In this document: in pieces, positions 20,065-46,288 of the stretch
Layout: every line of letters starts with the position of its first letter
Position numbering within the stretch: position 1 is the first letter of the stretch
Source of the DNA: an uncultured Actinomycetota bacterium
GTDB lineage: Bacteria; Actinomycetota; Actinomycetes; Mycobacteriales; Mycobacteriaceae
Assembly: GCA_963843125.1 (NCBI GenBank)
Contig: CAWJIX010000007.1
Coordinates: 741,580-805,579 of the forward strand
DNA: 64,000 nt
Direction: 5' to 3'
Notes under the pieces: model-generated
What the model saw: the letters and a program-made list of their open reading frames with translations, nothing else
Databases searched by the model: none
Told to the model about the DNA's origin: nothing
Translations under genes and position numbers: made by a program

Positions 20065-21770
20065 CCTGAATCCGTGGATGGGCCGGCGATTTGATCGGCG
20101 TGTGAACAGCGAAAATGCCCTCTGGCCTGGGATAATACGAGTGCTGACGTCGCATTTGTCCACAGTCCGAGAAGGCACTTTCGATGCACTCATCGTATAC
20201 GTTGACCGCCGACTCGGCGGTGTTTGACGAGCAGAATTTGGTGTCGGCGGCCGGGTTGGTGCCAGTGCTGGAACTTGCTGAGCAGACCGGTCTTTCGCGC
20301 CTGATCGGCGAGCACGTGCAGCTGCCCTCGACGCGGGTGAAGTCCGGTGCGGTCAACCCGGCCGGCAAGCTGACCTCGATCATCGCCGGAATGATGTGCG
20401 GCGCGGACAGCATCGATGACGCGAACGTGCTGCGCGCCGGCGGCACGCCACGGGTGTTCGATGAGGTGTATGCGCCGTCGACGTTGGGGATCTTCTTGCG
20501 CGAGTTCACCTTCGGGCACAGTAAACAACTCGCCGCGGTAGCCCGGGCGCATCTGGTGGCGCTTGCGGCGCGCACCCCGCTGCTGGCCGGGGCAGAAGAG
20601 CGGTTGTTCTTGGACATCGACTCGCTGCTGCGCCCGGTCTACGGCCACCACAAGCAGGGCGCCTCGTTCGGGCACACCAAGATCGCCAGCCGTGCGCTGC
20701 TGCGCCTGGGCCTGTCCCCGCAGATCACCACCATCTCCACGGCCACCGCGCCGCCGGTGATCGCTGAGGCGCAGCTGCGCAGCGGGCGGGCTGCTTCCGG
20801 GCGCGGTGGCGCCCGCCAAGTCAAGCAGGCCATTACCACCGCGAAAGCGATCAACCCCGACGCGACGATCATGGTGCGCGGCGACTCGATGTTCGGCACG
20901 AAAAAGGTGATCACCACCTGCGTGGCCGACGGCGTGCACTTCTCCCTGTCGGTGAGCCGCAACAAGCGCATCAGCGCCGCGATCGCCGCCATCGACGAGG
21001 CCGCCTACACCCCGGTGCATTACCCGGGCGCGGTCGAAGACCCTGACACCGGGCAGTTGATCTCTGATGCCCAGGTCGCCGAAACGCCCTACCCCCTGCG
21101 GCTGGGCCGCGGTCGCACGCTGACCGCCCGCCTGGTGGTGCGCCGGGTCAAAGACGCCCGCTACCCCGATGCGTTGTTTCCGGTGTGGCGCTATCACCCG
21201 TTTGTCACCAACTCCGCACTGCCGGTCGCCGAGGCCGATATCACCCACCGTCGCCACGCCATCATCGAAACCACCTTCGCTGACTTGATCGACGGACCGC
21301 TGGCTCATATCCCCTCCGGGCTGTTCGCCGCCAACTGCGCCTGGCTGGCATGTGCGGTGATCGCCCATAACCTGCTGCGCGCCGCGGGCACCCTCGCCGG
21401 CGGTCGCCACGCCGTGGCCCGTGGCGCCACCCTGCGCCGCGCCCTGGTCAACGTGCCCGCCCGCTTCGCCGCCCCGGCCCGCAAACCCATGCTGCACCTG
21501 CCCGCTCACTGGCCCTGGCAAACCGGATGGAAAACGCTGTGGGACAACGTCATCGGCTACCACTACCCGAGCGCCCAACCCCGCGCCGCCTGACCCCACC
21601 GCCAAGCCCCTGTCCACCCCCGGCCACCCAGGCCCGACCCAAGGACCCCCGCAACAAGGAAAAGCTGGTGCAGGCCAGCAGATCACCCATGCCCACACCG
21701 CGCCATAACCGACCGCAGACCAGCGCAACCCGCCGACAGCAACACGAAATCACCCATCCACGGATTCAGG
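20065..21770 (+). mobile_element. IS1380-family insertion sequence, 1706 bp
   Basis: Perfect 18-bp terminal IRs CCTGAATCCGTGGATGGG (20065-20082, 21753-21770); 5-bp TSD CTAAG (20060-20064, 21771-21775). Confidence 0.95.
20184..21593 (+). CDS. IS1380-family DDE transposase
   Basis: 469 aa; LVSAAGLVPV, LDIDS, RGDSMFG, RRHAIIE, LFAANCAW; open frame inside the IRs. Confidence 0.93.
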   Translation: MHSSYTLTADSAVFDEQNLVSAAGLVPVLELAEQTGLSRLIGEHVQLPSTRVKSGAVNPAGKLTSIIAGMMCGADSIDDANVLRAGGTPRVFDEVYAPSTLGIFLREFTFGHSKQLAAVARAHLVALAARTPLLAGAEERLFLDIDSLLRPVYGHHKQGASFGHTKIASRALLRLGLSPQITTISTATAPPVIAEAQLRSGRAASGRGGARQVKQAITTAKAINPDATIMVRGDSMFGTKKVITTCVADGVHFSLSVSRNKRISAAIAAIDEAAYTPVHYPGAVEDPDTGQLISDAQVAETPYPLRLGRGRTLTARLVVRRVKDARYPDALFPVWRYHPFVTNSALPVAEADITHRRHAIIETTFADLIDGPLAHIPSGLFAANCAWLACAVIAHNLLRAAGTLAGGRHAVARGATLRRALVNVPARFAAPARKPMLHLPAHWPWQTGWKTLWDNVIGYHYPSAQPRAA

Positions 21771-21927
21771 CTAAGTGCTCTACGTGGAGCTCCTTGCATA
21801 TGTTTCGCTCACCCCAAGGAGGTCAGCTGGACGCCTTCGCTCTCGCAGCGATTTGCGGTTCGGCCTCGCCCGGTGGGCCATCGGCCTAGGCTTCGATCAA
21901 GATCGCCTTCGGTGCGAGGAGTACGCC

Positions 21928-23235
21928 ATGGAGGTCCACAGTCGACGCCGTGTCTCGACGATCGCCATCATCGCCTCCGCCACGGCCAGCGCTGCTGTCG
22001 TGATGGCTGGTTGCACGTCGACGCCCTCGACGACGACGGCGTCGGGCACCACGACCACGGCCGGCACGACGTCACCGTCGAGCGCCCTCAAGCCGATAGA
22101 TCAGGCCGCCCTGCAAAGCGTTGTCGAGAAGGCCGTCAAGGACATGCAGGTCCCGGGCGCGGTGGTCGCGATCCGCACACCGCAGGGCAGCTACACCGTG
22201 GCGGTCGGCACCACGGAACTGGACAAGAAGACGCCGCCGGCCCCGAACACGCACTTTCGCATCGCCTCGAACTCCAAGACGATGACCGCGGCGTTGGTCG
22301 TGCTGCTCGCGCAGGACGGCAAGCTCAAGTTCACCGACCCGGTCTCTGACTACGTCCTCGACGTACCCAACGGCGACCACATAACAGTCGCCGATCTGCT
22401 GACGATGCGCAGCGGGCTGTACAACTACACCAGCGCACCGGAATTAGCCGCGCAGCTCGACGCCGACCCCGCGAAAGTCTGGACACCGCAGGAGGTCCTG
22501 GCCATCGCGTTCGCACACCCACCCAACGCCGCACCGAACACCAAATACGAATACAACAACACCAACTACGCGCTGCTCGGCCTGATCGCCGAAAAGGCAG
22601 GTGGCCGGCCGCTGGCAGAGCAGCTGCAGAACAGGCTCTTCGGACCGCTGGGGCTGGCGCAGACCTCGCTACCGGCCGTCGACGACACCTCGATTCCGAG
22701 TCCGTACTCGCACGGCTACATGTACGGCGGCTCGGTGCACGCGATGGTCGACGATCCCTACCCAGCTGACCTCAAGGCAGCCGGCAAAGCCGGAACGCTG
22801 AAGCCCGTCGACTACACCCACCAGAATCCCTCCTACGCCCACGCCGCCGGTGGCGTCATCTCCACCGCCGATGACATGGCGACCTGGATGCGAGCGCTGG
22901 TGTCGGGCAAGGTGTTCGACGCCGACTACCAACGGCAGTGGCTGGGCAGCCCGCAAGCCGAGGATCCCGATAAGCCCGACTGGCAGAAGTACGGCTACGG
23001 CATCTCGTATCAGCGATTCGGCCCGACCGCGGCGATGTACTACCACGGCGGCGAGATGCCGGGCTTCAACTCGTTCATGGGCTACGACCCCGATAGCGAT
23101 GTGTCGCTGGTCATTTGGACCAACTTGACTCTTTCGCTCGACGACCAGACCACCGCGCAGGCACTGCTGTCGACCGTCCTCGACGAGATCTACAGCGGCC
23201 TGTCGCTGGCGTCGACGCCGACCACCACGCGATAA
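21928..23235 (+). CDS. Serine hydrolase (beta-lactamase/D-Ala-D-Ala peptidase fold) lipoprotein
   Basis: Lipobox MAGC, SxxK (ASNSK), YxN (YNNTNY), HGG; GAGGAG RBS before ATG 21928. Confidence 0.88.
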   Translation: MEVHSRRRVSTIAIIASATASAAVVMAGCTSTPSTTTASGTTTTAGTTSPSSALKPIDQAALQSVVEKAVKDMQVPGAVVAIRTPQGSYTVAVGTTELDKKTPPAPNTHFRIASNSKTMTAALVVLLAQDGKLKFTDPVSDYVLDVPNGDHITVADLLTMRSGLYNYTSAPELAAQLDADPAKVWTPQEVLAIAFAHPPNAAPNTKYEYNNTNYALLGLIAEKAGGRPLAEQLQNRLFGPLGLAQTSLPAVDDTSIPSPYSHGYMYGGSVHAMVDDPYPADLKAAGKAGTLKPVDYTHQNPSYAHAAGGVISTADDMATWMRALVSGKVFDADYQRQWLGSPQAEDPDKPDWQKYGYGISYQRFGPTAAMYYHGGEMPGFNSFMGYDPDSDVSLVIWTNLTLSLDDQTTAQALLSTVLDEIYSGLSLASTPTTTR

Positions 23236-24621: not shown

Positions 24622-24694
<73 letters not shown>

Positions 24695-24738
24695 CTTCAA
24701 AGGCTATTTTAGGCTGCTGTATCCGCCCGACTGGACGT

Positions 24739-24995
24739 TTATTGGACGTTTATGGCGTCGTCGAGGGCGTCTGCGACCTGCGCGTGCAGTTTGCCGCGCG
24801 TCATGTAGACGTCTTGAGTCATCGACGGCCTGGCGTGACCCAGCTGATCAGCGCCTATGCGGGCCGAGAGGCCCCGGTCGTCGATCAGGGTGGCCACGCT
24901 CTTGCGGAAGCTGTGAGTTGTGACCACGGGAAGACCCAGCTGGCTCGCGCACTCTGCGCCAGTCCCGCGGCCATCACCGATCCGAAATTGGACGA
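24739..24995 (-). pseudogene. Tyrosine integrase C-terminal remnant with frameshifts
   Basis: TTHSFRKSVAT (HxxR), QLGHARPSMTQDVY (H, Y); upstream pieces WRRVRE and SNFG in other frames; ends 45 bp from tRNA-Lys. Confidence 0.85.
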
Positions 24996-25159
24996 ATTGC
25001 GTTCGGCTGCCAACTCTTTCAACAGCCAGTACGAAAGAACGGCCCTTATCAACGCTACGCCACGGCGACAACCTGACTCCAGCCCGCAGTGATGGTAGTG
25101 CTCTGTGTTTGCACCAATTGGCCGGCGGCGTCGATGTGGCAGATCGCCAGCAAGCGCCG

Positions 25160-25306
25160 GTGAGGGCGGCCTCGTACTCGGCTGGTGGAACGTAGCCGAG
25201 GGCTTCGTGCAGGCGTTCCTGGTTGTACCAGGCCACCCATACTGCGGTCGACAGTTCGATGTCGTCGATGCACCGCCACGGCTTGCCGCGGTGAATCAGC
25301 TCGGTC
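25160..25306 (-). pseudogene. IS3-family transposase C-terminal fragment
   Basis: TELIHRGKPWRCIDDIELSTAVWVAWYNQERLHEALGYVPPAEYEA; no terminal IR seen; boundaries approximate. Confidence 0.82.
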
Positions 25307-25466
25307 AGGACGCCGCGGGTGTCCCAGAAGACCTTTGGGACCTGCTTCCTGGGTACTCGACCTTCCGGTTCGTGTTTTGCGAGTCGGCCCCTTAGTGGAC
25401 CCGAACGCATCCCCACGGACGCGCCGGGGCCGCCGTCCCTGGATTTAAGGTTTCCGACGTCCTCGT

Positions 25467-26849
25467 CTACGGGCAGTTAGCGTTTTTCCCGCTGCCGCCC
25501 CACCAGAAGTACGAGCCCCAACTAGAGCCGCTCAACATGTGCGACTCGATTCCGTAGCAGGCAGGAAATTCCGACAGCGCGGTGCCATTGAAGTCAGACA
25601 TTGCGCCTTCCGTTGTTGATTGGTAGCGCAGGTTGCTCATGTAGGCGCAATGCTGCCACCCTTCATAAGGCCAATGGCCGTTTCCCATATCCGTGGAGGT
25701 CGTACCCGCGTGGCCGTCGGAATCGACGACTTCACCCCCCCAAAGGAGTTGATCAGCGTAGTCCCGAAGACCAGTGGTGTCATACAAGCTTGCAGGGTAG
25801 AACCCGATCCAGGTGCCGTTGACCTTCACCCACCAGTTGCCCTGCCACAGCTGGATTTTCAGAGCCATGATGTATTGCGTGCCGCCCGACTGACTTAGCG
25901 GCGTACACAGGCTGCCGGGGTGGATGGTGCTCGCGTACTGTTGCCACCCGCCCACCTCTGTGTTGTATCCACCAAGTTCCTTGCCAGTGTCCTTGTCCTT
26001 GCCAAACTTGGTGTACCCGTTGGTCGTGAAGAACGTGAAGAGGTGCGGTACCCAGTCGCCATATTTGTCGCGGTATTCCTGGCATCCAACCTCGAGTGTT
26101 TGCAGATTCGTGCCACTCCCTCGAACTAGCCACAGTTGGCCGAGTGAGAATTCATCGGACCAATTCGTATAGGGGTCCCAAGCGTTGATGTTGCCCTCAG
26201 TCCCATAGCAGGTAACGCTCTGGGTTGCGTAGACGTGCTTGTGAACGTCGGTACCTGGCACCTCGTAGCCAAATGCCTTGCCGGCGGGTGGCACGCGGTT
26301 TGCCCGGATACCCTTCGCTAGCCAATCGTTGAGGCTGGCCGTCGACGTGATTCGGTCGATTGGGGTGTGCAGCAATGGCACTGTTCCGCGCGGCCCTCGT
26401 TCTACGCTCTTTGTCTCGAGTTCGAACGTCACCAACTCGGCCCGCCGCTCGCCCTGCTGGAGCCTCGGCGGACTGTCCTCGTCCGGCGGATCGGCCGGAC
26501 GCCAACCACGTTGCGATTCGACAGGGACCCAGTCGATCTCGATGCCTCCGGGAGTCCGCGTTCGCATGATCACATCGCGGCGCGCGTACCTGTCAGCGAG
26601 GTATTGTCGGATCTCCTCGAGCCGCTCCGCGGACTGACGCTCCAGGATCTCCTCGGGGATCGAGGCGCCTTCACCCACGTCGTCGTCGCGCTCAGGATTG
26701 CGCTCGAATTTGCCCTTTGGCAAAGGTGTGTTCTGTGCCACGGACGTCTTCTTTGGTACCGACGTCTTCTTCGCGACCGACGTCTTCTTTGGTACCGCCA
26801 CCCTCTTCGTGGCCGTAGCCTTCTTCGCGGCTGATGTCTTTCTTGCCAT
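25467..26849 (-). CDS. Neprosin-family (DUF239) glutamic peptidase with pro-domain and Lys-rich N-terminal tail
   Basis: Pro-domain motifs IEIDWVPVESQ and PRGTVPL; catalytic domain SLGQLW, TLEVG, GNWW, IGFYPASLY, WGGEV, DMGNGH; AGGAGG RBS. Confidence 0.82.
   Translation of the reverse strand: MARKTSAAKKATATKRVAVPKKTSVAKKTSVPKKTSVAQNTPLPKGKFERNPERDDDVGEGASIPEEILERQSAERLEEIRQYLADRYARRDVIMRTRTPGGIEIDWVPVESQRGWRPADPPDEDSPPRLQQGERRAELVTFELETKSVERGPRGTVPLLHTPIDRITSTASLNDWLAKGIRANRVPPAGKAFGYEVPGTDVHKHVYATQSVTCYGTEGNINAWDPYTNWSDEFSLGQLWLVRGSGTNLQTLEVGCQEYRDKYGDWVPHLFTFFTTNGYTKFGKDKDTGKELGGYNTEVGGWQQYASTIHPGSLCTPLSQSGGTQYIMALKIQLWQGNWWVKVNGTWIGFYPASLYDTTGLRDYADQLLWGGEVVDSDGHAGTTSTDMGNGHWPYEGWQHCAYMSNLRYQSTTEGAMSDFNGTALSEFPACYGIESHMLSGSSWGSYFWWGGSGKNANCP
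26743..26796. repeat. 3 x 18-bp tandem repeat encoding V(P/A)KKTS
   Basis: GACGTCTTCTTTGGTACC / GACGTCTTCTTCGCGACC / GACGTCTTCTTTGGTACC. Confidence 0.9.
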
Positions 26850-26916
26850 CGGGGTTTCCTCCTAACGGTTTGTGAACCTCGCCGCCAAACTTAAAACCCC
26901 GGTCAGCTGAGACGAT

Positions 26917-26932
26917 GCGTAGTGCGGTACTT
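26917..26932 (-). promoter_or_regulatory. Putative activator box upstream of the neprosin gene
   Basis: AAGTAC-CGCA-CTACGC on the minus strand, 23 nt before TAAGTT (26893-26888). Confidence 0.55.
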
Positions 26933-27269
26933 CAGTTTTGGAAGATCGCCGCGCTGAGTACTGCAGTCCTTTTTCGCGTTCCGTCCTTGTCGTGGAAGAA
27001 AAGTTGCAACAAACATCTCCACGTTCAATGCATTCTCAGACGGCAAGCTCGACACGTGGGCTGATCGGAGCGTGACCGCCCAAGCGCGTTAGGAGGGCAA
27101 CGGCGATCCGGGATGATCGCGGGTCACGCGGCTGACTCGGGTTGGCGGCGAGCGCATTCGCCATCACCGCGAGCTGCAGGGCACCACGATGTCACACCTT
27201 CACGCTCCGCAACATGCAAGCCGGTGCCGGTGCGCGTTTGCCGACGATGTGTACACCGGCCGCAACCTT

Positions 27270-27450
27270 CTATCGGTGTTCGATCACCGACACCGTTCCG
27301 TCGTCCCGATTGGTTACCTAGACGGTGTGTGTGTGCTCGGGTCCACCGCCATCCGGCCGGGGCTCTTGCCGACGACACGGTGGAGGTGACGTACGCGTCG
27401 ACCCATCGATCACCGACACCGCCTTGTCGACCCGCTGACGACGTAGGGCC
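27270..27450 (-). pseudogene. Degraded YVTN beta-propeller repeat gene (3' remnant)
   Basis: 16-bp repeat at 27280 and 27406 (126 bp = 42 codons) encodes VSVI(D/E). Reconstructed DKAVSVIDGSTRT..GKSPGRMAVDPSTH TV*VTNRDDGTVSVIEHR-stop, with frameshifts and a nonsense codon at 27318-27320. Confidence 0.75.
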
Positions 27451-27477: not shown

Positions 27478-28626
27478 TCACGGCGACGTTGGATGATCCC
27501 TTTCGCGATCGGCCGCTCGGCGTGGGTCCTCGTGTTGTCCGGCCTCTGTGGTCGTAGTGCCGAAGCGTCGCTCCATTTGCGCGACCGTGACTACTTCGTC
27601 ACGGTCTAGCACCCGGTCAAGCCGGTCGCCGATGGTGAGCGCGACATATCGCCGGGGTTGCGAAACAATGCGAAACCGCTGATGTGGGGTCACTGGGCCG
27701 CTGGGTACCGATTGGATGTCGAGGTCTTCCTGCATCCACCGTCGGAGAGCGCTGCTGCTGACGAGGTCTGCCATGGATTGCTCGCCGTACTCACCGACCA
27801 CGGCGGGCCACCTGTCGATGATTGTCGCGATCGTGGCGGCGGCATCATCGGTGTCCGCTGCGGTGTCACGGCGGGCCCGTCGATAAGCCGACTCATAGTC
27901 GTCCGAGGAGAAGGCCCGCGCGAGTCGCTTGCGTACGTCGCGAGGCGACGCGATTCCTACGAAGATCTGTTCATCGCGCGACCGGACGAACACCAAAGCC
28001 TCGACGTCCGTGTAGTCCTGCGCCAGGGCAGCGACAAGGAAGAGCCTGGTCGACCACCAATAGTCGTCGTTTCGGAGATTGATTTGAAGAAGTTTCGACC
28101 TTCTCTGCACCACCTCCTCCATCGGACCCGACAGCCCGGATGCAGATGAGCCGACAACTGAAGTATCGATGGACGGTTGGCCCTGGCCCATGGCATCCGA
28201 CAGGTCGCCGGCCACGGCTTTGCTGTCACCCGCCATGGGCGCAGCCACTTCTGACAAGTTGAGTTCAACGCCGAAAGCCTTGATGCCGGTTACCCGCTCC
28301 CCGATCACGGCGACGACGACCGGCGCGACCGCCACTACGCCGACGACTACTGCGTGCGCGATCGGCATCCCTATCGCCCACGCCAGGCAACAGCCGAGGG
28401 CGAAGATCGCCATGACTGCGTAACCGGCTGCCGCGGTGCACATCCGCGGATAGAGCAGATACCAACGAAACCATCGAATGCGAACGTGTTCACCCAGCCC
28501 TGCGCCGAACCGCGCGCCGCCGGACGATCCGTGCCGCCGCCAAAGATGAAGCGCTGACGCCATACTCACCCACCCCCTCTGAGCACGACCGTGCGCAACC
28601 GTCGACTCAGATTGATCCGAGTCCAC
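27478..28626 (-). CDS. Hypothetical membrane protein (2 TM helices plus soluble domain; start uncertain)
   Basis: 382-aa ORF; hydrophobic segments near residues 65-107; INLRNDDYWWSTRLFLVAALAQDYT block; C-terminus weakly CBS-like. Confidence 0.65.
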   Translation of the reverse strand: MDSDQSESTVAHGRAQRGWVSMASALHLWRRHGSSGGARFGAGLGEHVRIRWFRWYLLYPRMCTAAAGYAVMAIFALGCCLAWAIGMPIAHAVVVGVVAVAPVVVAVIGERVTGIKAFGVELNLSEVAAPMAGDSKAVAGDLSDAMGQGQPSIDTSVVGSSASGLSGPMEEVVQRRSKLLQINLRNDDYWWSTRLFLVAALAQDYTDVEALVFVRSRDEQIFVGIASPRDVRKRLARAFSSDDYESAYRRARRDTAADTDDAAATIATIIDRWPAVVGEYGEQSMADLVSSSALRRWMQEDLDIQSVPSGPVTPHQRFRIVSQPRRYVALTIGDRLDRVLDRDEVVTVAQMERRFGTTTTEAGQHEDPRRAADRERDHPTSP

Positions 28627-28751: not shown

Positions 28752-29039
28752 TCACTGCTTCCGCAGCAGATCGACCTCGGTGGCCGTCGTGACCCGTTGA
28801 GCCGGGAAGCCGGCGCGGTCGCACGTTTGCACGACGGCGCTAGCCGAGTCGGCGGTGAAGACAGCGAAGAGCACCTCGTCGGTCGGCACGGCGAGCAGGT
28901 TGAGCAGCTTGACCGGAGATCCCTGTGCCGACATCAGCACCGCCGAGTCCGTCAGGCGCGTCACCGTGTCGTCGAGGGGTTCATCCATGACGGCGGAGTG
29001 ATACCACTCGACGAGATAGCAGGGCACCGGAACAGTCAT
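28752..29039 (-). CDS. Small DUF4242/SCO4226-like protein
   Basis: CYLVEWY...LAVPTDEVLFAVF.A.S...V...C.RAG.P.QR pattern; leaderless TAGCGT 7 nt before the ATG. Confidence 0.65.
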   Translation of the reverse strand: MTVPVPCYLVEWYHSAVMDEPLDDTVTRLTDSAVLMSAQGSPVKLLNLLAVPTDEVLFAVFTADSASAVVQTCDRAGFPAQRVTTATEVDLLRKQ

Positions 29040-29075: not shown

Positions 29076-29090
29076 TCGGGTGTTTCCCTA
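29076..29090 (-). promoter_or_regulatory. Putative LuxR-type operator
   Basis: TAGGG-AAACA-CCCGA, 23 nt upstream of -10 TAGCGT (29052-29047); overlaps the LAL gene stop codon. Confidence 0.5.
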
Positions 29091-31847
29091 TGCCTTGAGC
29101 TGGCCGACGTGTCGGCCGAGTTCCGCGCGCGAATGGATGCCGAGCTTGGCGTAGATCCGGGCGAGGTTGGATTCAACCGTCTTCGGGCTGATGTACATGG
29201 CGGCGGCGATGTTGCGGTTGGTCATGCCCGACGCGGCGAGTTCGGCCACCCGGCGTTCCGACGGACTGAGGGCCCCCTTGCAGCCGCCGCCGCGGCGGAC
29301 CCGGCCCACCTCGGTGCGGGCGCGGTCGGCCCACAACGGTGTGCCCAACCGCTCGAACGTCTCCAGCGCAGCGTGCAGGCTCTCCGCCGATGCGTCCTTC
29401 AGGCGCTGACGACGCTGGAGCTGGCCCAGCAGCAGCTGGGTGCGGGCCCGTTCGAACGGCATCGGCATGTGTTCGTGCGCCGTCATCGCTCGTTCGACCG
29501 CATCGACTGCCGCCGCGACATCGCCGCGGGCGGCCAGGATCATGCCGCGGCCCCGACCACCCATGGCCAGCATCCAGTCGCGCCGCAGCCGGGCGCCGTT
29601 GCGCTCGAAAGCGGACACCAGCTGCTCGGCGGGCTCCAGCTGATCGAGCGCGACCATCGCCTCCACTGCGTCAGGGATGAACGACGCCGCGATGATCTCC
29701 GTCACCTTCGGCTCCATCCCCACCTTGCGCAGCAGCGGCCCGACCGCATCGAGCGCGGCACGGTATTCACCCAGAGAGACCTCGAGGAAGCCCAGGGCGG
29801 TCGACGGCCATTCCCCCAGCCTGTCGGAGCCGCAGCGCAGATTGGCCGCGCGCGCTTCGGCGATGTCGGACCGCGCGTCCTCGACGCGACCCTGATAGGC
29901 CGCCAGCAGCGCGCGGCCGGTCAGCGCCGCCGAGAGCGGCAGATCGCCACCGAGTTGCTGGGCGAGCTGCATGGTGTCCTCGGCGATGAGGGCGGCTTCG
30001 GCGAATTGTCCCCGCCAGATGTCGACCAGGACGCCGTGGAACGCGACGAGCATCAGCTCGCCTTCCTGGCCGTGATCGATGCAGCGCTTCCGAAGAGCCG
30101 TCAACTCGTCATGAGCCCAGTCGAGCTCACCGGTGCAGGACCGAAGGATCGCGTTGTGAACGCTGGGGCGAAGCGCGAACGGGATATTCGCCTGCTGGTG
30201 CTCCAGCTCCAGCGCCCGCCTGATCCCCGCTTCGTCGAGACCGCTGCCCTGCAGGAGTCGCACCATGGCCCGCATCCCCAGCGCCTGGCTCAGTAGGTCC
30301 GATCGTCCGGCCCCCCGCGCCCGCGCGACGGCCTCGTCGACCCGCTGCGCCGAAGCGTCGAGGCGACCGGCATTGAACAACGCGAACGACAACGTGACCA
30401 ATGTCGGCACCAACACGGCGGGATCGTCGACGGCCTCGTCCAGCGCACCCTCCAGTAGAGCCACCGCTTCGGGAAAACTGTCGTCGAGCAGCCGCACGTA
30501 ACCGAGCAGGCCGGCCGCTTCCGCGCGCAACCGGCCGGGTTCGAGTTGCGCGATCGCCTCCTCGAGAAGGATGCGCGCCCGAGCGGAGTCACCGGCATTG
30601 AAATGGTGACCGGCCGAGCGGATGCGACGCAGCGGTGTATCGCCGCCGAGTCCGATCGCCAGATCGATCAGTTCGGCCGCCGCGGCCGGTGCGCCCCGGC
30701 TGCGTGCCGAATCGGCCGCCGCGTCGAGAGCCTCCAACGTCGCAGAATCGGCGCGCAGCGATCCCAACGCCAGGTGGCGCGCCCGCACTTCGGGTTCGTC
30801 GACGACGGTGGCCAGCCGTCTGTGCATCGCGCGCCGCCGCTCGGGTGCGGCCTCGTTGTAGACGCCGCGAGCGAATATCGGATGGCTGAACCGCAGCTGT
30901 TCGCCGCTGATCTCGACGACCCCGCGGCCCTCGGCGTCCTCGAGCTGCGCGGCGACGGTGTCCGGGTCGGATCGGAGCGCGCGGGCAACGACGCCCATGG
31001 TCGGTGTCGCCAGACAGGCCACGGCGAGCAATGCGTCGTCGACTCCGGCGTCCCGGCCATGGATCCGTGACCGGATCAACTCCGTCAAGCTGTCCGGAAG
31101 GGCGATATCGGCGCCCGGCTGACGCCCCACCATCGCCTTGGCGAGTTCCAGGGCATAGAACGGATTGCCGCGAGAAGCCTCCTCGATGCGCATCATTTCG
31201 GGCCGTGAGAACGTGCGTCCCAGGCGATTCGAGAGCACGACATGCAGTGCGCCGACACTCATGGCGGGCACGGTCATCCGCCGCATTGTGTCGGGCCTCG
31301 GCAGCTGCAACCACGAGCCGGCGCTCTCGCTGTCTCCGATGCGGACGGTGGCGAGCACGCCGACGGGTCCCACGAGCCGACGCGCCAGGAACGTGATCAC
31401 AAGCCGGGTCGAGGAGTCCAGCCACTGCAGATCATCTACTGCGACAAGCACCTTCGCCGTGTCCGCGAGGATGCCGACGACGGACAACAATCCCGCCGAC
31501 ACGGCACGCTGATCTACCGGAAGACGGTCCGCGTCGGCTCGATGAAGGACGCGATCGAGCGCAACCCGTTGCGGCGTGGGCAATTCCGCGAGTACGGATC
31601 GGTCGATGCCGCTCAGCATGTCGGCCAGGGATGCGTACGCGGGCACCGACTCTGCTGCGACGGCCCGAGCGGTCAGCACGCGGAAGCCGTCGGCTTCGGC
31701 TTGGTGTACCGCCTGCAACCACAAGGTGGTCTTGCCGATTCCCGGCTCTCCCTCCATCACCAGGCCGGACGGCGCAGCGACTATGGAGGCCAAGAACTCG
31801 GCAATCGCCGAGGCCTGCGGCTCACGGCTGACCACCTGCGCTGGCAT
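29088..31847 (-). CDS. LAL-family regulator (AAA ATPase, TPR-like region, LuxR HTH)
   Basis: Walker A GEPGIGKTT, Walker B VDDLQWLD, GNPFY, C-terminal LSPSERRVAELAASGMTNRNIA...SPKTVESNLARIYAKLG. Confidence 0.92.
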   Translation of the reverse strand: MPAQVVSREPQASAIAEFLASIVAAPSGLVMEGEPGIGKTTLWLQAVHQAEADGFRVLTARAVAAESVPAYASLADMLSGIDRSVLAELPTPQRVALDRVLHRADADRLPVDQRAVSAGLLSVVGILADTAKVLVAVDDLQWLDSSTRLVITFLARRLVGPVGVLATVRIGDSESAGSWLQLPRPDTMRRMTVPAMSVGALHVVLSNRLGRTFSRPEMMRIEEASRGNPFYALELAKAMVGRQPGADIALPDSLTELIRSRIHGRDAGVDDALLAVACLATPTMGVVARALRSDPDTVAAQLEDAEGRGVVEISGEQLRFSHPIFARGVYNEAAPERRRAMHRRLATVVDEPEVRARHLALGSLRADSATLEALDAAADSARSRGAPAAAAELIDLAIGLGGDTPLRRIRSAGHHFNAGDSARARILLEEAIAQLEPGRLRAEAAGLLGYVRLLDDSFPEAVALLEGALDEAVDDPAVLVPTLVTLSFALFNAGRLDASAQRVDEAVARARGAGRSDLLSQALGMRAMVRLLQGSGLDEAGIRRALELEHQQANIPFALRPSVHNAILRSCTGELDWAHDELTALRKRCIDHGQEGELMLVAFHGVLVDIWRGQFAEAALIAEDTMQLAQQLGGDLPLSAALTGRALLAAYQGRVEDARSDIAEARAANLRCGSDRLGEWPSTALGFLEVSLGEYRAALDAVGPLLRKVGMEPKVTEIIAASFIPDAVEAMVALDQLEPAEQLVSAFERNGARLRRDWMLAMGGRGRGMILAARGDVAAAVDAVERAMTAHEHMPMPFERARTQLLLGQLQRRQRLKDASAESLHAALETFERLGTPLWADRARTEVGRVRRGGGCKGALSPSERRVAELAASGMTNRNIAAAMYISPKTVESNLARIYAKLGIHSRAELGRHVGQLKA

Positions 31848-33041: not shown

Positions 33042-33518
33042 GTGGCACAGACCCTCCGCCTGGAGGTGGGCGACAAAGCTCCCGCGTTCAGCCTGCCCGA
33101 CGCCGACGGCGACACGGTGTCACTCGCCGACTATCGCGGCCGCAAAGTCATCGTCTACTTCTATCCGGCGGCATCGACGCCCGGATGCACAAAGGAGGCG
33201 TGCGACTTCCGCGACAATTTGGGTGAGCTCAGCGACGCCGGCCTCGATGTCGTCGGCATCTCGCCGGACAAGCCGGAGAAACTCGCCAAGTTCCGCGACA
33301 ACGAGAAGCTCACCTTTCCGCTGCTGTCCGATCCCGACCGCAAGGTGTTGACGGCGTGGGGCGCCTACGGCGATAAGACGATGTACGGCAAGACCGTGCA
33401 GGGCGTCATCCGCTCGACGTTCGTCGTCGACGAGAAGGGCAAGATCGACGTCGCGCAATACAACATCAAGGCTGCACATACGACAACATTCATCAAAAAG
33501 CTGCTCGGTGCCTCGTAA
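33042..33518 (+). CDS. bcp: Thioredoxin-dependent peroxiredoxin Bcp with a substituted C-terminus
   Basis: YFYPAASTPGCTKEACDFRD, RSTFVVDE; last 14 codons come from inserted DNA. Confidence 0.93.
   Translation: MAQTLRLEVGDKAPAFSLPDADGDTVSLADYRGRKVIVYFYPAASTPGCTKEACDFRDNLGELSDAGLDVVGISPDKPEKLAKFRDNEKLTFPLLSDPDRKVLTAWGAYGDKTMYGKTVQGVIRSTFVVDEKGKIDVAQYNIKAAHTTTFIKKLLGAS
33452..33472 (+). repeat. 21-bp direct repeat, left copy (attL-like) in bcp
   Basis: CGCGCAATACAACATCAAGGC, identical to 34861-34881. Confidence 0.92.
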
Positions 33519-33788
33519 TCATGTGGACGGTGTGTCAGGTACGGCGGGAATCGTTGTCACGGATTGATTCTCGGCCGATCACATGTTCGGCTGTCGGTTA
33601 CAACACGACGCCCGCGCCCGCTCACTTAATTACCAGGACGTAGTCAGCTTGAGCCGTGCTTCCCCTGAGCTGACCTCCACAGCAGGCGGAAAAGGACCAT
33701 CGACTCTATAGAACTCCGAGATGTGAGCGCATTCTTTGTGCGAGACATTCGAGACTGATTTCCTTTCAGCCATTCCTTGGGAGCGATC

Positions 33789-34118
33789 ATGGCAGAAGGC
33801 ACCGAGAAGAAGATGGCGCCGGAACGAGCGTCAGACCTAACAGAACGAGTAGCAGGCCTGTCCGACGAAGTGCTCAAGTCGGTCGAATCCGGACAACGGA
33901 CCGCCATTGATGCCGTGCGCAAGTTCGTTGGCGCTGTCGATGAGTCTATGCCGGGGAATGCCGACGACCATTCGTCGAGACGCAATACCATCGTCGACGC
34001 CGCCCTCGATATGGCGGACAAGCTAGTCAAGACGCAGTACGAGTTCATACGGAGCGTCGTCGGCAGTGCGAGCGAGACGCTGAAAAAGCAGGGCGACGAG
34101 AAGCCAACTACTGAGTAA
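33789..34118 (+). CDS. Helical hypothetical protein (amphipathic, phasin/HBHA-like by composition)
   Basis: 109 aa, heptad-like pattern, GGAG RBS; family not securely identified. Confidence 0.7.
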   Translation: MAEGTEKKMAPERASDLTERVAGLSDEVLKSVESGQRTAIDAVRKFVGAVDESMPGNADDHSSRRNTIVDAALDMADKLVKTQYEFIRSVVGSASETLKKQGDEKPTTE

Positions 34119-34258
34119 GTCGCGCTGCTTGGCCCCTAAGGGTCCTCGCTGGGTGGTCCGACGCCCGGCTCTGTGGAGAGTCTCCGATCGGTTCAACGAG
34201 GTGGCTACACCGGTTTCTTACAGCGCGCTAGCCCAGGTCACCGGAGGACAAAACCACA

Positions 34259-34774
34259 ATGAGCCAACAGTCCGCTGTCACCTCCGTCGAATCTCTCGAC
34301 CTCAACCGCTACAGCGGCCTTTGGTATGAGCTGGGAAGGCTCCCGCTCAAATGGGAGCACGCCGATGCATCGGACATCACCGCCGAATACACGCTCGAGG
34401 ACGACGGAAGCGTGCGTGTCGACAACCGGTGTATCGACGAGGACGGCACACCGTCGCAGTCGATCGGTCGCGCGACCCCTGTGAACGGCCAGGCGGGACG
34501 GTTGCAGGTGTCGTTCCTTCCGCAGTTCCTGCAGTGGGTCCCTTTCACGAAAGGTGACTACTGGGTTCTGAAGATCGACGACGCCTACTCGGTTGCCCTT
34601 GTCGGTACACCCGACCACAAAAACCTGTGGCTTCTGGCCCGGGATCCTCGCATCGACCACGCCACGGAAGCGGCCTACCTCGCCGAAGCGACCGGGCAGG
34701 GGTTCGATCTCGGAAAGTGGATCACACCGAGGCAGTCGGGTGGGCGCGTCACCGACGATCGACTCGACCGCTGA
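34259..34774 (+). CDS. Blc-like lipocalin without signal peptide
   Basis: SCR1 RYSGLWYELGR, DYWVLKIDDAY..ALVG, LWLLARDP; GGAGG RBS. Confidence 0.9.
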   Translation: MSQQSAVTSVESLDLNRYSGLWYELGRLPLKWEHADASDITAEYTLEDDGSVRVDNRCIDEDGTPSQSIGRATPVNGQAGRLQVSFLPQFLQWVPFTKGDYWVLKIDDAYSVALVGTPDHKNLWLLARDPRIDHATEAAYLAEATGQGFDLGKWITPRQSGGRVTDDRLDR

Positions 34775-34860
34775 TCCGGAAACCGGCTCACCGCTACCAC
34801 GCGGCCTGGAACTCGCACTAGGGGGCCCACCCCATCCGGTGGTGGTCGGCCACACTCAGG

Positions 34861-34924
34861 CGCGCAATACAACATCAAGGCCACCGGGCACGTGGCCAAG
34901 CTGCGTCGCGACCTATCTGTCTGA
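34861..34924 (+). pseudogene. Right repeat copy plus displaced original bcp 3' end
   Basis: 34862-34924 encodes AQYNIKATGHVAKLRRDLSV-stop, the usual mycobacterial Bcp C-terminus as recalled; ends 14 bp from the convergent dipeptidase stop. Confidence 0.88.
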
Positions 34925-36817: not shown

Positions 36818-39800
36818 TCATCGCGTGTACACGCCGTCTTCGCCCAGCCTCGACGTCGGATCGAGCAGCATCTCGGCCTCCGCGCGGTTCTCCGGCGCCT
36901 CGTCATCAAGGCGACGGTTGCTTGCGGGCCGCTCGTATAAGGACTTGCCGCCCGCGATCGCCGACGCCAGCCTGCGCTGACCGGCGAACACCCGGGCGTG
37001 AGCCCTCTGCTGGTAGTCCGACCGCTGCTGCGCATCGAGCGCGGCGACGAACGCCTGCGGATGCACCAGCGCGATGACGCCCGAGACGTGACCGAAGCCG
37101 AGGCTGGTGACCAGGCCCGCCTTCAGGGGGTACTTCTCGCCCAGCCGCAGCGTCTCGCGCACCCACACGAAGTGCTCCGAGCCGGCCAACTCGTCGTCGA
37201 CACAGTCCAGGCTGCGGTTCGGCGGGATGACGCCGTCGCGCAGCATCTGGCACATGCCCATCATCTGGAACACCGCCGCGCCGCCCTTGGCGTGACCGGT
37301 CAGGCTCTTCTGCGACACGATGAACAACGGCGCGCCGTCCGACCGGCCCAGCGAGTCGGCGAGCCGCTCATGCAACTCCGTCTCGTTCGGGTCGTTGGCG
37401 AGCGTCGACGTGTCGTGCTTGGAGATGACCGCGATGTCGTCGGCGCCGACACCGAGCTTAGCCAGCGACCGTGCCAGCAGCGAGTCCTTGCCGCCGCGGC
37501 CTGCGCCCAGCGCGCCGAGCCCCGGCGCCGGGATCGAGGTGTGCACGCCGTCGGCGAACGACTGCGCGTACCCGACCACGGCCAGCACCGGCAGACCCAT
37601 CTTCAGCGCGAGGTCGCCGCGGGCCAGCAGGATCGTGCCGCCGCCCTGCGATTCGACGAACCCGAGCCGACGCCGGTCATTGGCCCGGGAGAACTTCGAA
37701 TCGCTGATGCCCCGTGCACGCATCATCTCGGTGTCGGCGGTGGCCGCCATGTCACCGAATCCGATGATCGCCTCCAGCGTCAGGTCGTCGAAGCCGCCCG
37801 TCACCACGAGTTCGGCCTTGCCGAGCCGGATCTTGTCGACGCCCTCTTCGACCGACACCGCCGCCGTCGCGCATGCGCCGACCGGGTGGATCATTGAGCC
37901 GTAGCTGCCGACATAGGACTGGATCACATGCGCCGCAACGACGTTCGGCAGGACCTCCTGCAGAATGTCGTTCGGCTTGTTCCGGCCCAGCAGGTTTCCG
38001 TGGTACATGGTCTGCATCGACGTCATGCCGCCCATGCCGGTGCCCTGTGTGCTGGCCACCATGGTGGGGTGCACCCAGCGCATCAGCTCGTTCGGGGTAA
38101 ATCCCGCGCCGAGGAACGCATCGACGGTCGCGACGATGTTCCACACCGCCACCCGGTCCAGCGACGTGTTCATGTCCGCGCTGATGCCGTACACCGTCGG
38201 GTCGAACCCGGTCGGGATCTGACCGCCGACGGTCCGCGACAGCTTCGTCTTGCGCGGAACCCGAATCTCGGTGCCCGCCTTGCGGGTCACCTGCCAGTCG
38301 CTGCTGTCGGGTACCGGCGTCGCGACGGTGTGCTCCGGGTCGAACTGCACGAACGCCCGCGCGTCGGCCTCCGACGACACCACGAACGTGAAGTCCTTGT
38401 CGAGGAACACCGACACCAGAAGCGGCGACGCGTGGTCGGGGTCGATCGCGCCGTCGTCGACAAACTCGCGGATGCCGGTCCGCTCCACGACGGCGTCGTG
38501 GTAGCGCTCCACCAACTCCGATTCGTCGACCAGATCGCCGGATTCGGTGTCATACCAGCCCGGCTTCGGATCGTCCTCCCACTTGATCAGGCCGGTCGTC
38601 CACGCCAGCTCGAGCACACCGGCGGCCGACAGCTCGTTGTCGACCTCCATCTCGAAGCGGGTGCGCGACGAGCCGTACGGGCCGAGCTCGGCGCCGCCGA
38701 CGATCACCACCATGTCGGCGGGGTCGATGTCGAGGTCCGCCCACTGCGGCGCCGGCGCAGCGGTGAAGCCACGCGGCGGCGACGGCAGCGCGGCGATCGT
38801 GCCGCCCTGCTCCTCGCTGTCCTCGGCACTTTCGGCGGCCATCTCCTCGCGGGCCTTGGCGGCCAGTTCGGACATGTCGATGTCGATATCGCCCAGCCCG
38901 CCGGTCAGGTCGACCTTCAGCGGTTGCTGCGCGGCGGCCACCTTCGACTCGATGCTGCACAGGTCGAGCAGCATCGCGGCCATCTGCTCGGTCGAGTAAG
39001 TGGTGACGCCCGCCTCCTCGACAGCGCTGACGATCGCGTCGTTGGCACCCATCAGGCCGGTGCCGCGGGTCCAGCCGATCAGCGCGTGCGCCAGGCTGAC
39101 GCGCTGCGCCCACGACGATTCGGCGTTCCACCGCGTCACCACCGCATCGAGCGCGGACTTGGATTCGCCGTAGGCGCCATCACCGCCGAACATGCCGCGG
39201 TTCGGAGAGCCGGGCAGCACCACGTGCAGCCGCGACGCGATATCGCGCTCGGCGCCGATGTGCGACAGGCCGCCGATCAGCCGCTGCACGGCCCACAGCA
39301 GCACCTTCATCTCCATCTCCGAGCGCGAGCCGGCCTCCGAGAGGTCACCGGCCACCCGCGGTGCCGCGAACGGGAACAGCAGCGTCGGCGTCTGCGCATC
39401 CTTGAGGTGAATGGACTGCGGCCCAAGGCTTTCGCTCTGCTCATTGCCGACCCAGGCCACCAGCGCGTCGATGTCGGAGTAGGACGCCATGTTGGCGGGC
39501 ACCACCCACAGCGCCGCGCCGAAGCGGGCGTTGTCGCGGTACAGGTCGCGGTAGAACTCGAGTCGGTTGTCGTCGAGCTTGGACGTGGTGGCGATGACGG
39601 TCGCGCCGCCGTCGAGCAGACCGGCGGCCACCGACGCCGCGATCGATCCCTTCGATGCGCCTGTCACCACGGCGATTTCATCGCTGTACCGACCCTTGCC
39701 CGGGTTCTCCGCACCGGCAGCGGCGCGGCCGAACAAGGACGCGTGGACGGTGCGGCCGGCGGCCAGCGCCTTGCCCTGCCACCAGGACGCCTGCTTGCCG

Positions 39801-46072: not shown

Positions 46073-46288
46073 GTCTCGTAATCTCCTCGGTCCTGCTTCT
46101 CGCACGTCTCGCGTCGCTTCGTGGCATCTGGGCTGTCGTCTTTGGACGGTGACCTCGCTCCCCTGCGAGACCTCCTACGATTCGGCGTCGAATCCGGGCT
46201 GGTTCTCGGCCCCGTTCGGGCCGTCCAGCGGACACTCCAGCCGTACTAAGAGTGTCATAAGAGCACAGAGGATTTTTCCGCCTGAAAT

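Follow-up and report, generated by a model that had tools for sequence, protein, structure and literature searches.

The window analysed here, a 64,000-nucleotide stretch of a contig from an uncultured member of the Mycobacteriaceae, carries on its reverse strand a gene for a 460-residue protein. A sequence-only reading had described this protein as a plant-type neprosin, a glutamic peptidase, found in a mycobacterium and carrying a histone-like lysine-rich tail where a signal peptide would be expected. The features of the locus are collected in Table 1. The open reading frame (ORF) is full length, and its ATG start at 26849 is accompanied by a perfect AGGAGG ribosome-binding sequence. A mycobacterial host is supported by a flanking gene for an L,D-transpeptidase, the product of which is 87–95 % identical to its best matches, the named ones being from Mycobacterium or Mycolicibacterium. 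The host is an environmental member of the family, and none of the observations has a bearing on virulence.

The protease, its active site and its pro-region

The Pfam Neprosin hidden Markov model (HMM; PF03080) matched residues 232–452 (E=1.1e-41, 143 bits against a cutoff of 22) over positions 2–213 of the 214 in the profile. The neprosin chains 7zu8, 7zvb and 9qr8 in the PDB were matched by phmmer with E values of about 5e-29, improving to 4e-40 when a profile made from 16 sequences was used, and a search of NCBIfam matched the protease to none of its families. A structural model of the protein was built with AlphaFold2 (AF2) on 66 homologues (predicted local distance difference test, pLDDT, 81.9; predicted template-modelling score, pTM, 0.82). 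Foldseek aligned this model with mature neprosin (7zvc_A; E=1.2e-21, template-modelling score (TM) 0.86, root-mean-square deviation (rmsd) 2.2, 266 columns) and also with the neprosin zymogen (7zu8_A; E=5e-24, target-normalised TM 0.78, 385 columns), where the alignment covered the pro-domain. Both the HMM search and the structure prediction agree with the proposed family. Assignment of the protein to the neprosin-type glutamic peptidases is secure, and both Glu of the dyad are intact.

The two candidate catalytic Glu motifs and the upstream Gln motif picked out earlier are all in place and align with the active site of neprosin, namely TLEVG (residues 251–255, E253 with E188), WGGEV (residues 370–374, E373 with E297) and GQLW (residues 237–240, Q238 with Q173). 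Mapping of the catalytic and cleft residues, with roles taken from the neprosin structure paper (PMC9343461), showed that W240, T251, H203 and Y279, hydrogen-bonding partners of the dyad, correspond to W175, T186, H134 and Y214, and F234, Q257 and Y259 to F169, Q192 and Y194, which form the subsites of the neprosin cleft. The sole substitution among the mapped residues is H205, which aligns with neprosin Y136. Five of the six dyad-supporting residues are identical to those of neprosin and the sixth, H205, could also donate a hydrogen bond. In the 66 homologues, E253, Q238 and H203 are conserved in every sequence and E373 in 65.

The cysteines C431 and C459 align with the neprosin disulfide C358–C379, and both positions are kept in 61 of the 66 homologues. 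In four of the five homologues that are missing one Cys, the other is also absent or falls in a gap, leaving one instance of a single loss. Neprosin C52 and C98 are replaced by W107 and G152, and the C219–C224 loop is absent. The computed isoelectric point (pI) of the catalytic domain is 4.9; neprosin combines an acidic catalytic domain (pI 4.3) with a basic pro-domain (pI 9.5) (PMC9343461).

Ahead of the catalytic domain, the AF2 model places a pro-region consisting of an acidic stretch, a helix (residues 67–90), four beta-strands and a second helix (residues 173–177), after which comes K179. The linker between pro-region and catalytic domain sits where neprosin has its flexible maturation segment (N122–N131). 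Pro-domain motifs had been reported from the sequence, and this claim was not confirmed by sequence searches. The predicted fold matched that of the neprosin zymogen, but the Pfam Neprosin_AP profile (PF14365) gave no match at E<=10 to the whole protein or to the isolated pro-regions of four homologues. Alignment of the pro-region with residues 40–110 of the neprosin pro-domain using hhalign was collinear but weak (P=0.033), and the pro-domain is therefore backed by fold and not by sequence. A type VII secretion motif (YxxxD/E) was considered in the helix at residues 67–90 (RYARRD) and was dropped, as the Tyr is not conserved in the alignment.

Bacterial relatives, the N-terminal tail and a downstream partner gene

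A protein search recovered 414 clusters at 90 % identity, nearly all of 410–430 aa and with about 90 % query coverage. Several of these relatives, in Streptomyces, Actinomadura and Antrihabitans, are named "neprosin family prolyl endopeptidase" by NCBI. A scan of species-representative genomes yielded 107 confirmed stretches, and 80 loci (numbered with the prefix L) were kept for comparison. According to their record titles, these 80 span about ten phylum-level groups (Actinomycetota, Chloroflexia, Cyanobacteria, Verrucomicrobia, Acidobacteriota, Bacteroidota, Myxococcota, Pseudomonadota, Planctomycetota and others). A HMMER search run exhaustively over 1.84 billion representatives found 2086, 1141 and 267 clusters (50 % identity) at E<=1e-3, 1e-10 and 1e-30, respectively, plant members presumably included. 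A search of a phage collection found zero relatives of the protease, and a plasmid search found only three distant matches (26–28 % identity).

The nearest relatives are bacterial, with 76–84 % identity to the window protein compared with about 30 % for Nepenthes neprosin. The closest non-mycobacterial ones (76–80 % identity) are from metagenome-assembled genomes (MAGs) of Microbacteriaceae or unclassified Actinomycetes and from soil metagenomes. The literature trails the databases: neprosin orthologues have been described as plant-restricted (PMC9343461), and a preprint from 2022 put the number of bacterial sequences in Pfam at 50. On these sequence relationships, the gene is not a plant import but part of a large bacterial clade, experimentally uncharacterised although its members already have database names, and the label "plant-type" is misleading in suggesting a plant origin. 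As the bacterial family already has a database name, the finding is less of a surprise than a mycobacterium with a plant protease would have been. What is new relative to the named family is the architecture, in which a Lys-rich tail is present at the N-terminus and the partner gene is absent.

The absence of a hydrophobic signal peptide, noted at the outset, was confirmed by Kyte-Doolittle analysis, the maximum mean hydrophobicity being 0.13 over the first 70 residues (averaged over 11 residues) and 0.47 over the whole protein (averaged over 19). Relatives down to approximately 37 % identity in several phyla begin a few residues before an ERNP-like motif, likewise with no hydrophobic leader. 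A signal peptide or anchor was seen in only five genome loci, which are among the most distant (34–37 % identity; Bacteroidota, Planctomycetota and one Pseudomonadota MAG), and one metagenome locus (L116, 34 % identity) has a hydrophobic, lipoprotein-like leader at the N-terminus. Judged across these N-termini, lack of a signal peptide is a trait of the clade. N51 of the ERNP motif is conserved in at least 90 %, and RNP was found within the first 75 residues in 29 of 66 sequences, compared with 1.1 % in shuffles.

The window protein begins with MARKTSAAKKATATKRVA, followed by VPKKTS VAKKTS VPKKTS, and the acidic stretch ERNPERDDDVGEGASIPEE comes after these. This is the arrangement of three V(P/A)KKTS repeats and an acidic stretch that had been read in the ORF. 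The repeats are encoded by an 18-bp tandem array, which Tandem Repeats Finder (TRF) placed at 26743–26797 (3.1 copies, score 89). The tail contains 13 K+R and zero D/E (charge +12.5, pI 12), a composition that matches the likeness to HupB and HBHA drawn earlier. The model is of low confidence here, with pLDDT <50 over most of residues 1–33 and block means of 43–54 for residues 1–40. The G+C content at third codon positions (GC3) is 0.71 in the tail and 0.72 in the remainder of the gene, and with the tail included the pro-region has a pI of 9.8 in place of 5.0.

Among the N-termini inspected (16 proteins, about 80 genome loci and 26 metagenome loci), a Lys-rich tail was found only in the window protein and in P0002, encoded at locus L084. 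P0002 is 84 % identical to the window protein, and its tail, MAKKAPAKKAPAKKAPAKGKFERNP, is built from another repeat unit (AKKAP). The contig encoding it carries PE, PPE and DUF732 genes, indicating that P0002 is mycobacterial too. The two genes have their start codon, ribosome-binding site and first codons in common, and conservation of the Shine-Dalgarno sequence and ATG implies that the tail is translated. Met1 of the tail-less relatives aligns with Leu43, encoded by a TTG, but a start at this codon is unlikely, as it is without a Shine-Dalgarno sequence, unlike the conserved upstream ATG. Different repeat units with equal Lys-rich character, following a conserved start, suggest selection for a basic tail over drift. 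The ratio of non-synonymous to synonymous substitution rates (dN/dS) for the two genes is 0.18, and the protease has been under purifying selection since it split from this second mycobacterial copy.

L092, a relative with 80 % identity, is without a tail, and the sequence comparisons indicate that the tail is a separate mycobacterial addition, independent of the leaderless state. The suggestion that it stands in place of a signal peptide did not hold, as tail-less relatives down to about 37 % identity are equally leaderless. This bears on the idea that a plant neprosin gene moved into a mycobacterium, where the tail replaced a lost signal peptide for surface targeting. The catalytic domain is indeed approximately 30 % identical to that of Nepenthes neprosin, and HBHA and HupB are mycobacterial proteins that are leaderless, Lys-rich and found at the surface. 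Against this stand bacterial relatives at 76–84 % identity, where the one plant enzyme compared reaches about 30 %, and hundreds of bacterial clusters over many phyla. The leaderless state of tail-less relatives, L092 included, further indicates that no signal peptide was lost or replaced, and we regard transfer from a plant as very improbable.

Clustering of the ORFs flanking the relatives revealed a small gene directly 3' of the protease gene and on the same strand, its start overlapping or abutting the protease stop. It encodes a protein of about 75–115 aa (91–117 residues in the products given by independent gene callers), for which Pfam returned no family. A local HMM detected this partner in about 48 of the 80 genome loci (approximately 60 %), including nearly all close relatives, and in 16 of the 26 metagenome loci, with E values from 1e-9 (for a copy cut off at a contig end) down to 1e-36. 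The loci include L002, L004, L007, L010, L017, L022, L023, L025, L039, L040, L048, L087 (9242–9595), L088 (9257–9532) and about 35 others. The partner, like the protease, is without a signal peptide, and its motifs are VIPSxVDPDxECVRI, a proline-rich spacer, LCPxGYVPRRRR, Y.L.GK and an RNP-type motif near the C-terminus. An xNP was found near the end in 16 of 19 partner C-termini, and the occurrence of ERNP/RNP at both the protease N-terminus and the partner C-terminus could mark a post-proline processing site or a docking site.

Using hhalign, the partner could be aligned weakly but collinearly with the protease's own pro-region (E=5e-4). It also aligned with the neprosin pro-domain (P=0.019), with its two Cys on C52 and C98 and CPdGYVPRRRR on CPKGSIPIRRQ. 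It has these two Cys, the CPxGxxPxRR of the plant activation domain and a Lys spaced like the K118 plug. From these weak alignments we infer that the partner resembles a free mini pro-domain and is a candidate trans-acting inhibitor. The partner HMM had no match in either the window or L084. The place usually taken by the partner is filled in the window by mobile-element debris, which starts about 50 bp past the protease stop. The tail-less L101, L105 and L106 are likewise without a partner, and the link between gain of the tail and loss of the partner therefore rests on one lineage. Charge compensation, with the Lys tail replacing a basic partner, was also considered and is weakened by the partner being acidic overall (median pI 5.3) and having no more than a local cluster of Arg.

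A more elaborate scenario, which we think unlikely, is that leaderless neprosins are held in trans by the downstream mini pro-domain protein and that the mycobacterial lineage lost this partner and gained the polycationic tail. Zymogen control or localisation would thereby have been rewired, for example by HBHA-like retention at the envelope or nucleoid, and ERNP may be a post-proline self-processing site at which the tail is shed.

In one Streptomyces subclade (L026, L027, L029, L032, L035 and L053), a conserved leaderless protein of approximately 415 aa, bearing a BNR-like SxDGGxTW motif, is encoded directly 5' of the protease, and on the 3' side are several conserved genes of large size. 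This suggests a larger operon around neprosin in this lineage.

Genomic setting of the protease gene

The protease gene is in a 2.75-kb segment that is absent from three related mycobacterial contigs. The blastn synteny with L085 and L086 stops exactly at 24695, the last base of a tRNA-Lys(CTT) gene, and synteny with L089 resumes at 27446. The far boundary was set by synteny; a second copy of the tRNA-Lys 3' end (attR) was not found in the window with up to 3 mismatches allowed. Within the segment are fragments of a recombinase and of an IS3-type element, the protease gene and its upstream region. The two fragments are joined in one chimeric ORF that combines the C-terminal part of an IS3-type integrase core (rve_3, E=4e-8, residues 44–78) with the C-terminal part of a tyrosine recombinase (Phage_integrase, E=6e-4, residues 163–205). 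The G+C content of the segment is 0.606 compared with 0.665 for the window, and the GC3 of the protease gene is 0.72 compared with 0.84–0.90 in neighbouring core genes.

The segment appears to be a decayed integrative element, and the location of low-GC DNA at the 3' end of a tRNA-Lys gene together with integrase and transposase debris indicates that its acquisition was recent. Horizontal acquisition, as originally proposed, is thus borne out. As the nearest non-mycobacterial relatives are from Microbacteriaceae and Actinomycetes, the donor was probably another actinomycete. The 630 bp upstream of the protease gene contain no Rfam family besides the tRNA and no sigma-70-like promoter, the latter scan using an E. 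coli-type consensus.

Table 1. Location of the protease gene, its parts and other features in the window
Feature	Position	Strand	Basis
Gene for the 460-aa neprosin-family glutamic peptidase precursor, including stop codon	25467–26849	-	ORF, PF03080, PDB neprosin match, AF2/Foldseek
Shine-Dalgarno sequence AGGAGG, 8 nt 5' of ATG	26858–26863	-	direct sequence reading; kept in L084
Lys-rich disordered tail, residues 1–45	26715–26849	-	sequence, pLDDT, charge
Three tandem 18-bp units encoding VPKKTS, VAKKTS and VPKKTS (residues 19–36)	26742–26795	-	TRF, repeat-family search
ERNP motif, residues 49–52	26694–26705	-	alignments; N-terminus of leaderless clade
Pro-region, residues 46–182	26304–26714	-	AF2 secondary structure, Foldseek to 7zu8_A
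K179 codon, candidate latency plug	26313–26315	-	invariant in 66/66 sequences
Flexible linker, residues 183–199, likely activation-cleavage segment	26253–26303	-	pLDDT <50
Catalytic beta-sandwich domain, residues 200–460	25470–26252	-	Foldseek, residue mapping, conservation counts
Active-site E253 codon	26091–26093	-	alignment to neprosin
Active-site E373 codon	25731–25733	-	alignment to neprosin
2.75-kb segment absent from three related mycobacterial contigs	24696–27445	.	blastn synteny breaks, composition
tRNA-Lys(CTT), 3' end forming the insertion boundary	24622–24695	+	ARAGORN; Rfam tRNA 69 bits; synteny end
Chimeric mobile-element-debris ORF	24739–25416	-	Pfam rve_3 and Phage_integrase; occupies place of partner gene
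Variable region beyond tRNA-Lys	24696–28751		gene sets differ in three related mycobacterial contigs
Gene for 382-aa protein	27478–28626	-	two predicted N-terminal membrane helices
Gene for 95-aa weakly SCO4226-like protein	28752–29039	-	
Gene for 919-aa LuxR-type regulator	29088–31847	-	AAA_16, TPR and GerE
1.39-kb segment	33473–34860		absent from L086 and L089
1.39-kb segment with both copies of the 21-nt repeat	33452–34881		repeat copies at 33452 and 34861
tRNA-His	18658–18732		
Segment starting about 45 bp past tRNA-His	18776–21988		absent from related contigs
IS1380-family transposase gene	20184–21593		NCBIfam E=7e-84
3095-aa ORF	36818–46105	-	GC3 0.90

In such a setting the protease could be a stranded passenger of the decayed element, its tail a neutral slippage expansion and the gene silent or becoming a pseudogene after loss of the partner. 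The reduction of the adjacent integrase and transposase to fragments, the absence of the partner gene, the lack of a sigma-70-like promoter and the simple tandem repeat in the tail are all in keeping with this. The ORF is nevertheless of full length, with all of the catalytic residues and a perfect ribosome-binding site, and the dN/dS of 0.18 was obtained against a second copy that is also tailed and partner-less. The same Lys-rich character past a conserved start is reached there with a different repeat unit, and the promoter scan was limited to an E. coli-type consensus. An inert passenger is accordingly improbable in our view.

The tRNA-Lys gene and the DNA beyond it form a variable hotspot, with gene sets beyond the tRNA that differ in the three related mycobacterial contigs; HtpG and nitroreductase genes are found there in L086, TetR and NIPSNAP genes in L085 and other genes in L089. 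Upstream of the protease gene is a gene for a 382-aa membrane protein that matched no Pfam, NCBIfam or PADLOC family. This protein family is rare (46 clusters) and includes fusions to TIR_2 (P0277) and to an AIG2-like gamma-glutamyl cyclotransferase (P0276), and its weakest match, P0287 (E=2e-4), carries DUF4062, giving the family a defence-island flavour. A functional link between this protein and the protease was considered and rejected, as its homologues occur without neprosin and L089 has the same locus without the protease.

Further along, the 95-aa protein gene adjoins the gene for a LuxR-type regulator, which is present in L089 and has a shorter gene in its place in L085 and L086, making it a further variable part of the locus. 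Among the neighbours of the protease, PADLOC matched only residues 858–905 of this regulator, overlapping GerE, to the CARF3--CARF model. The 1.39-kb segment is flanked by an exact 21-nt direct repeat, CGCGCAATACAACATCAAGGC, and looks like an insertion with target duplication. The segment near tRNA-His contains the IS1380-family transposase gene, and a long ORF is also present (Table 1).

Proposed mode of action and location, and known counterparts

We consider it probable, while well short of certain, that the protein is a glutamic endopeptidase of the neprosin type (MEROPS G3) from the leaderless bacterial clade, made as a latent precursor and operating as follows. The pro-region would occlude the cleft as in neprosin, and the invariant K179 may act like neprosin K118. 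A cut in the linker (residues 183–199) would free the active enzyme, and acidification probably favours this, because all glutamic peptidases studied work at low pH. The activated enzyme would then cut peptide bonds, plausibly after proline. The 45-residue polycationic tail most likely tethers the precursor to polyanions. To judge by composition, a released protein may bind the cell envelope or glycosaminoglycans of a host and an intracellular one nucleic acids, so that the target depends on where the protein is located. A destination outside the cytoplasm, which would be reached by a non-classical route or by lysis, is favoured by two features, the acid chemistry of glutamic peptidases and a Cys pair that is both conserved and covarying.

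Several observations weigh against this interpretation. No signal peptide, Tat motif or transmembrane segment was found in the window protein or in its close Gram-positive and Gram-negative relatives, and a missing export signal in both the clade and its partner argues for the cytoplasm, where a Glu-Glu acid peptidase is expected to be nearly inactive at neutral pH. The pro-region lacks a Neprosin_AP match and is acidic (pI 5.0, compared with 9.5 for the neprosin pro-domain), which may leave no place for acid activation by charge repulsion. The position of H205 is Tyr in 59 of 66 relatives and His in only seven. As the partner gene is absent beside the window protease, its regulation may differ from that in the rest of the clade. 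Finally, no experimental or biochemical study of any bacterial member was found in the literature searched.

A different account is that the protein is a strictly cytoplasmic regulated protease. The tail would bind DNA or RNA and hold the zymogen on the nucleoid or ribosomes, and the enzyme would act near neutral pH on intracellular or self targets, perhaps as a stress, defence or toxin-like module. Besides the absence of an export signal in the window protein and nearly all close relatives across several phyla, the leaderless partner shows the translational coupling to the protease gene that is seen in cytoplasmic pairs of enzyme and inhibitor. HupB is a Lys-rich precedent for DNA binding. 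The neighbourhoods of the relatives are variable and island-like, with genes for NERD, SLFN-type helicase and PIN proteins in L002 and for ParA/ParB, Fic and Prim-Pol near the protease in L087, and the adjacent 382-aa protein has TIR-fused homologues. In actinobacterial TopA, Lys-rich repeats are reported to confer high processivity on DNA (PMC7398561). On the other side, PADLOC assigned the protease to no defence family and linkage to the 382-aa neighbour is not conserved. Glutamic peptidases known from families G1 and G3 depend on acid pH (PMC9343461), and a reducing cytoplasm is not where one would expect a conserved, covarying Cys pair whose neprosin counterpart forms a disulfide. We find a purely cytoplasmic role somewhat unlikely and favour a latent precursor that may eventually act outside the cytoplasm.

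The window protein is a well-conserved bacterial counterpart of neprosin that is under purifying selection. The clade combines the catalytic machinery of neprosin with a different biology, being leaderless, with an acidic pro-region, usually a co-transcribed, pro-domain-like partner, and a patchy occurrence on DNA that is variable or mobile. It becomes possible to ask where the plant family came from, bacteria being a plausible source. Neprosin is in development as an oral enzyme against gluten peptides, and the bacterial clade is a pool of uncharacterised candidate proline-directed acid proteases. How a protease with a Cys pair that matches the neprosin disulfide works, or is exported, without a leader is a tractable question, and the mycobacterial Lys tail is a natural experiment in enzyme re-targeting.

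Neprosin founded its peptidase family, which we take to be MEROPS family G3, and is to our knowledge the only member to have been characterised. It is listed as U74 in PMC9343461, where the structures are 7ZU8, 7ZVA, 7ZVB and 7ZVC. The window protein has in common with the Nepenthes x ventrata enzyme the beta-sandwich catalytic domain, the Glu-Glu dyad, the equivalents of Q173, W175, T186, H134, Y214, F169, Q192 and Y194, the positions of C358–C379 and, in the predicted fold, a pro-domain followed by a flexible linker. It differs in being only about 26–31 % identical, in having no signal peptide and no Neprosin_AP match, and in a pro-region that is acidic and has the extra long helix at residues 67–90. 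It also differs in lacking the C52–C98 and C219–C224 disulfides, in having His for Y136, in the added 45-residue Lys-rich tail and in its bacterial host.

The eqolisins (MEROPS G1) are more distant. SCP-B (PDB 1S2B) was a distant Foldseek match to the AF2 model (E=1.2e-3), and the eqolisins are of the same beta-sandwich fold class, have one catalytic Glu and are acid-active zymogens. Their dyad is Gln-Glu and that of the window protein is Glu-Glu, and sequence similarity is undetectable. The tail resembles those of HupB (MDP1/Hlp), HBHA and TopA in having short tandem repeats of low complexity rich in K, A, T, P, V and S that are predicted to be disordered. It is N-terminal and not C-terminal, consists of V(P/A)KKTS and not PAKKA-type units and is attached to a protease zymogen, and the likeness is one of composition and not of homology. 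The closest counterparts are the named bacterial relatives in Streptomyces sp. TLI_185, Streptomyces scabichelini HC44, Actinomadura sp. 9N215 and Antrihabitans sp. YC2-6, which share with the window protein (51–84 % identity) the architecture from the ERNP motif to a C-terminal CP, the leaderless state, the Glu dyad and K179. They differ in being 410–430 aa in length and having no Lys-rich tail, and most have a partner gene and a Tyr at the position of H205.

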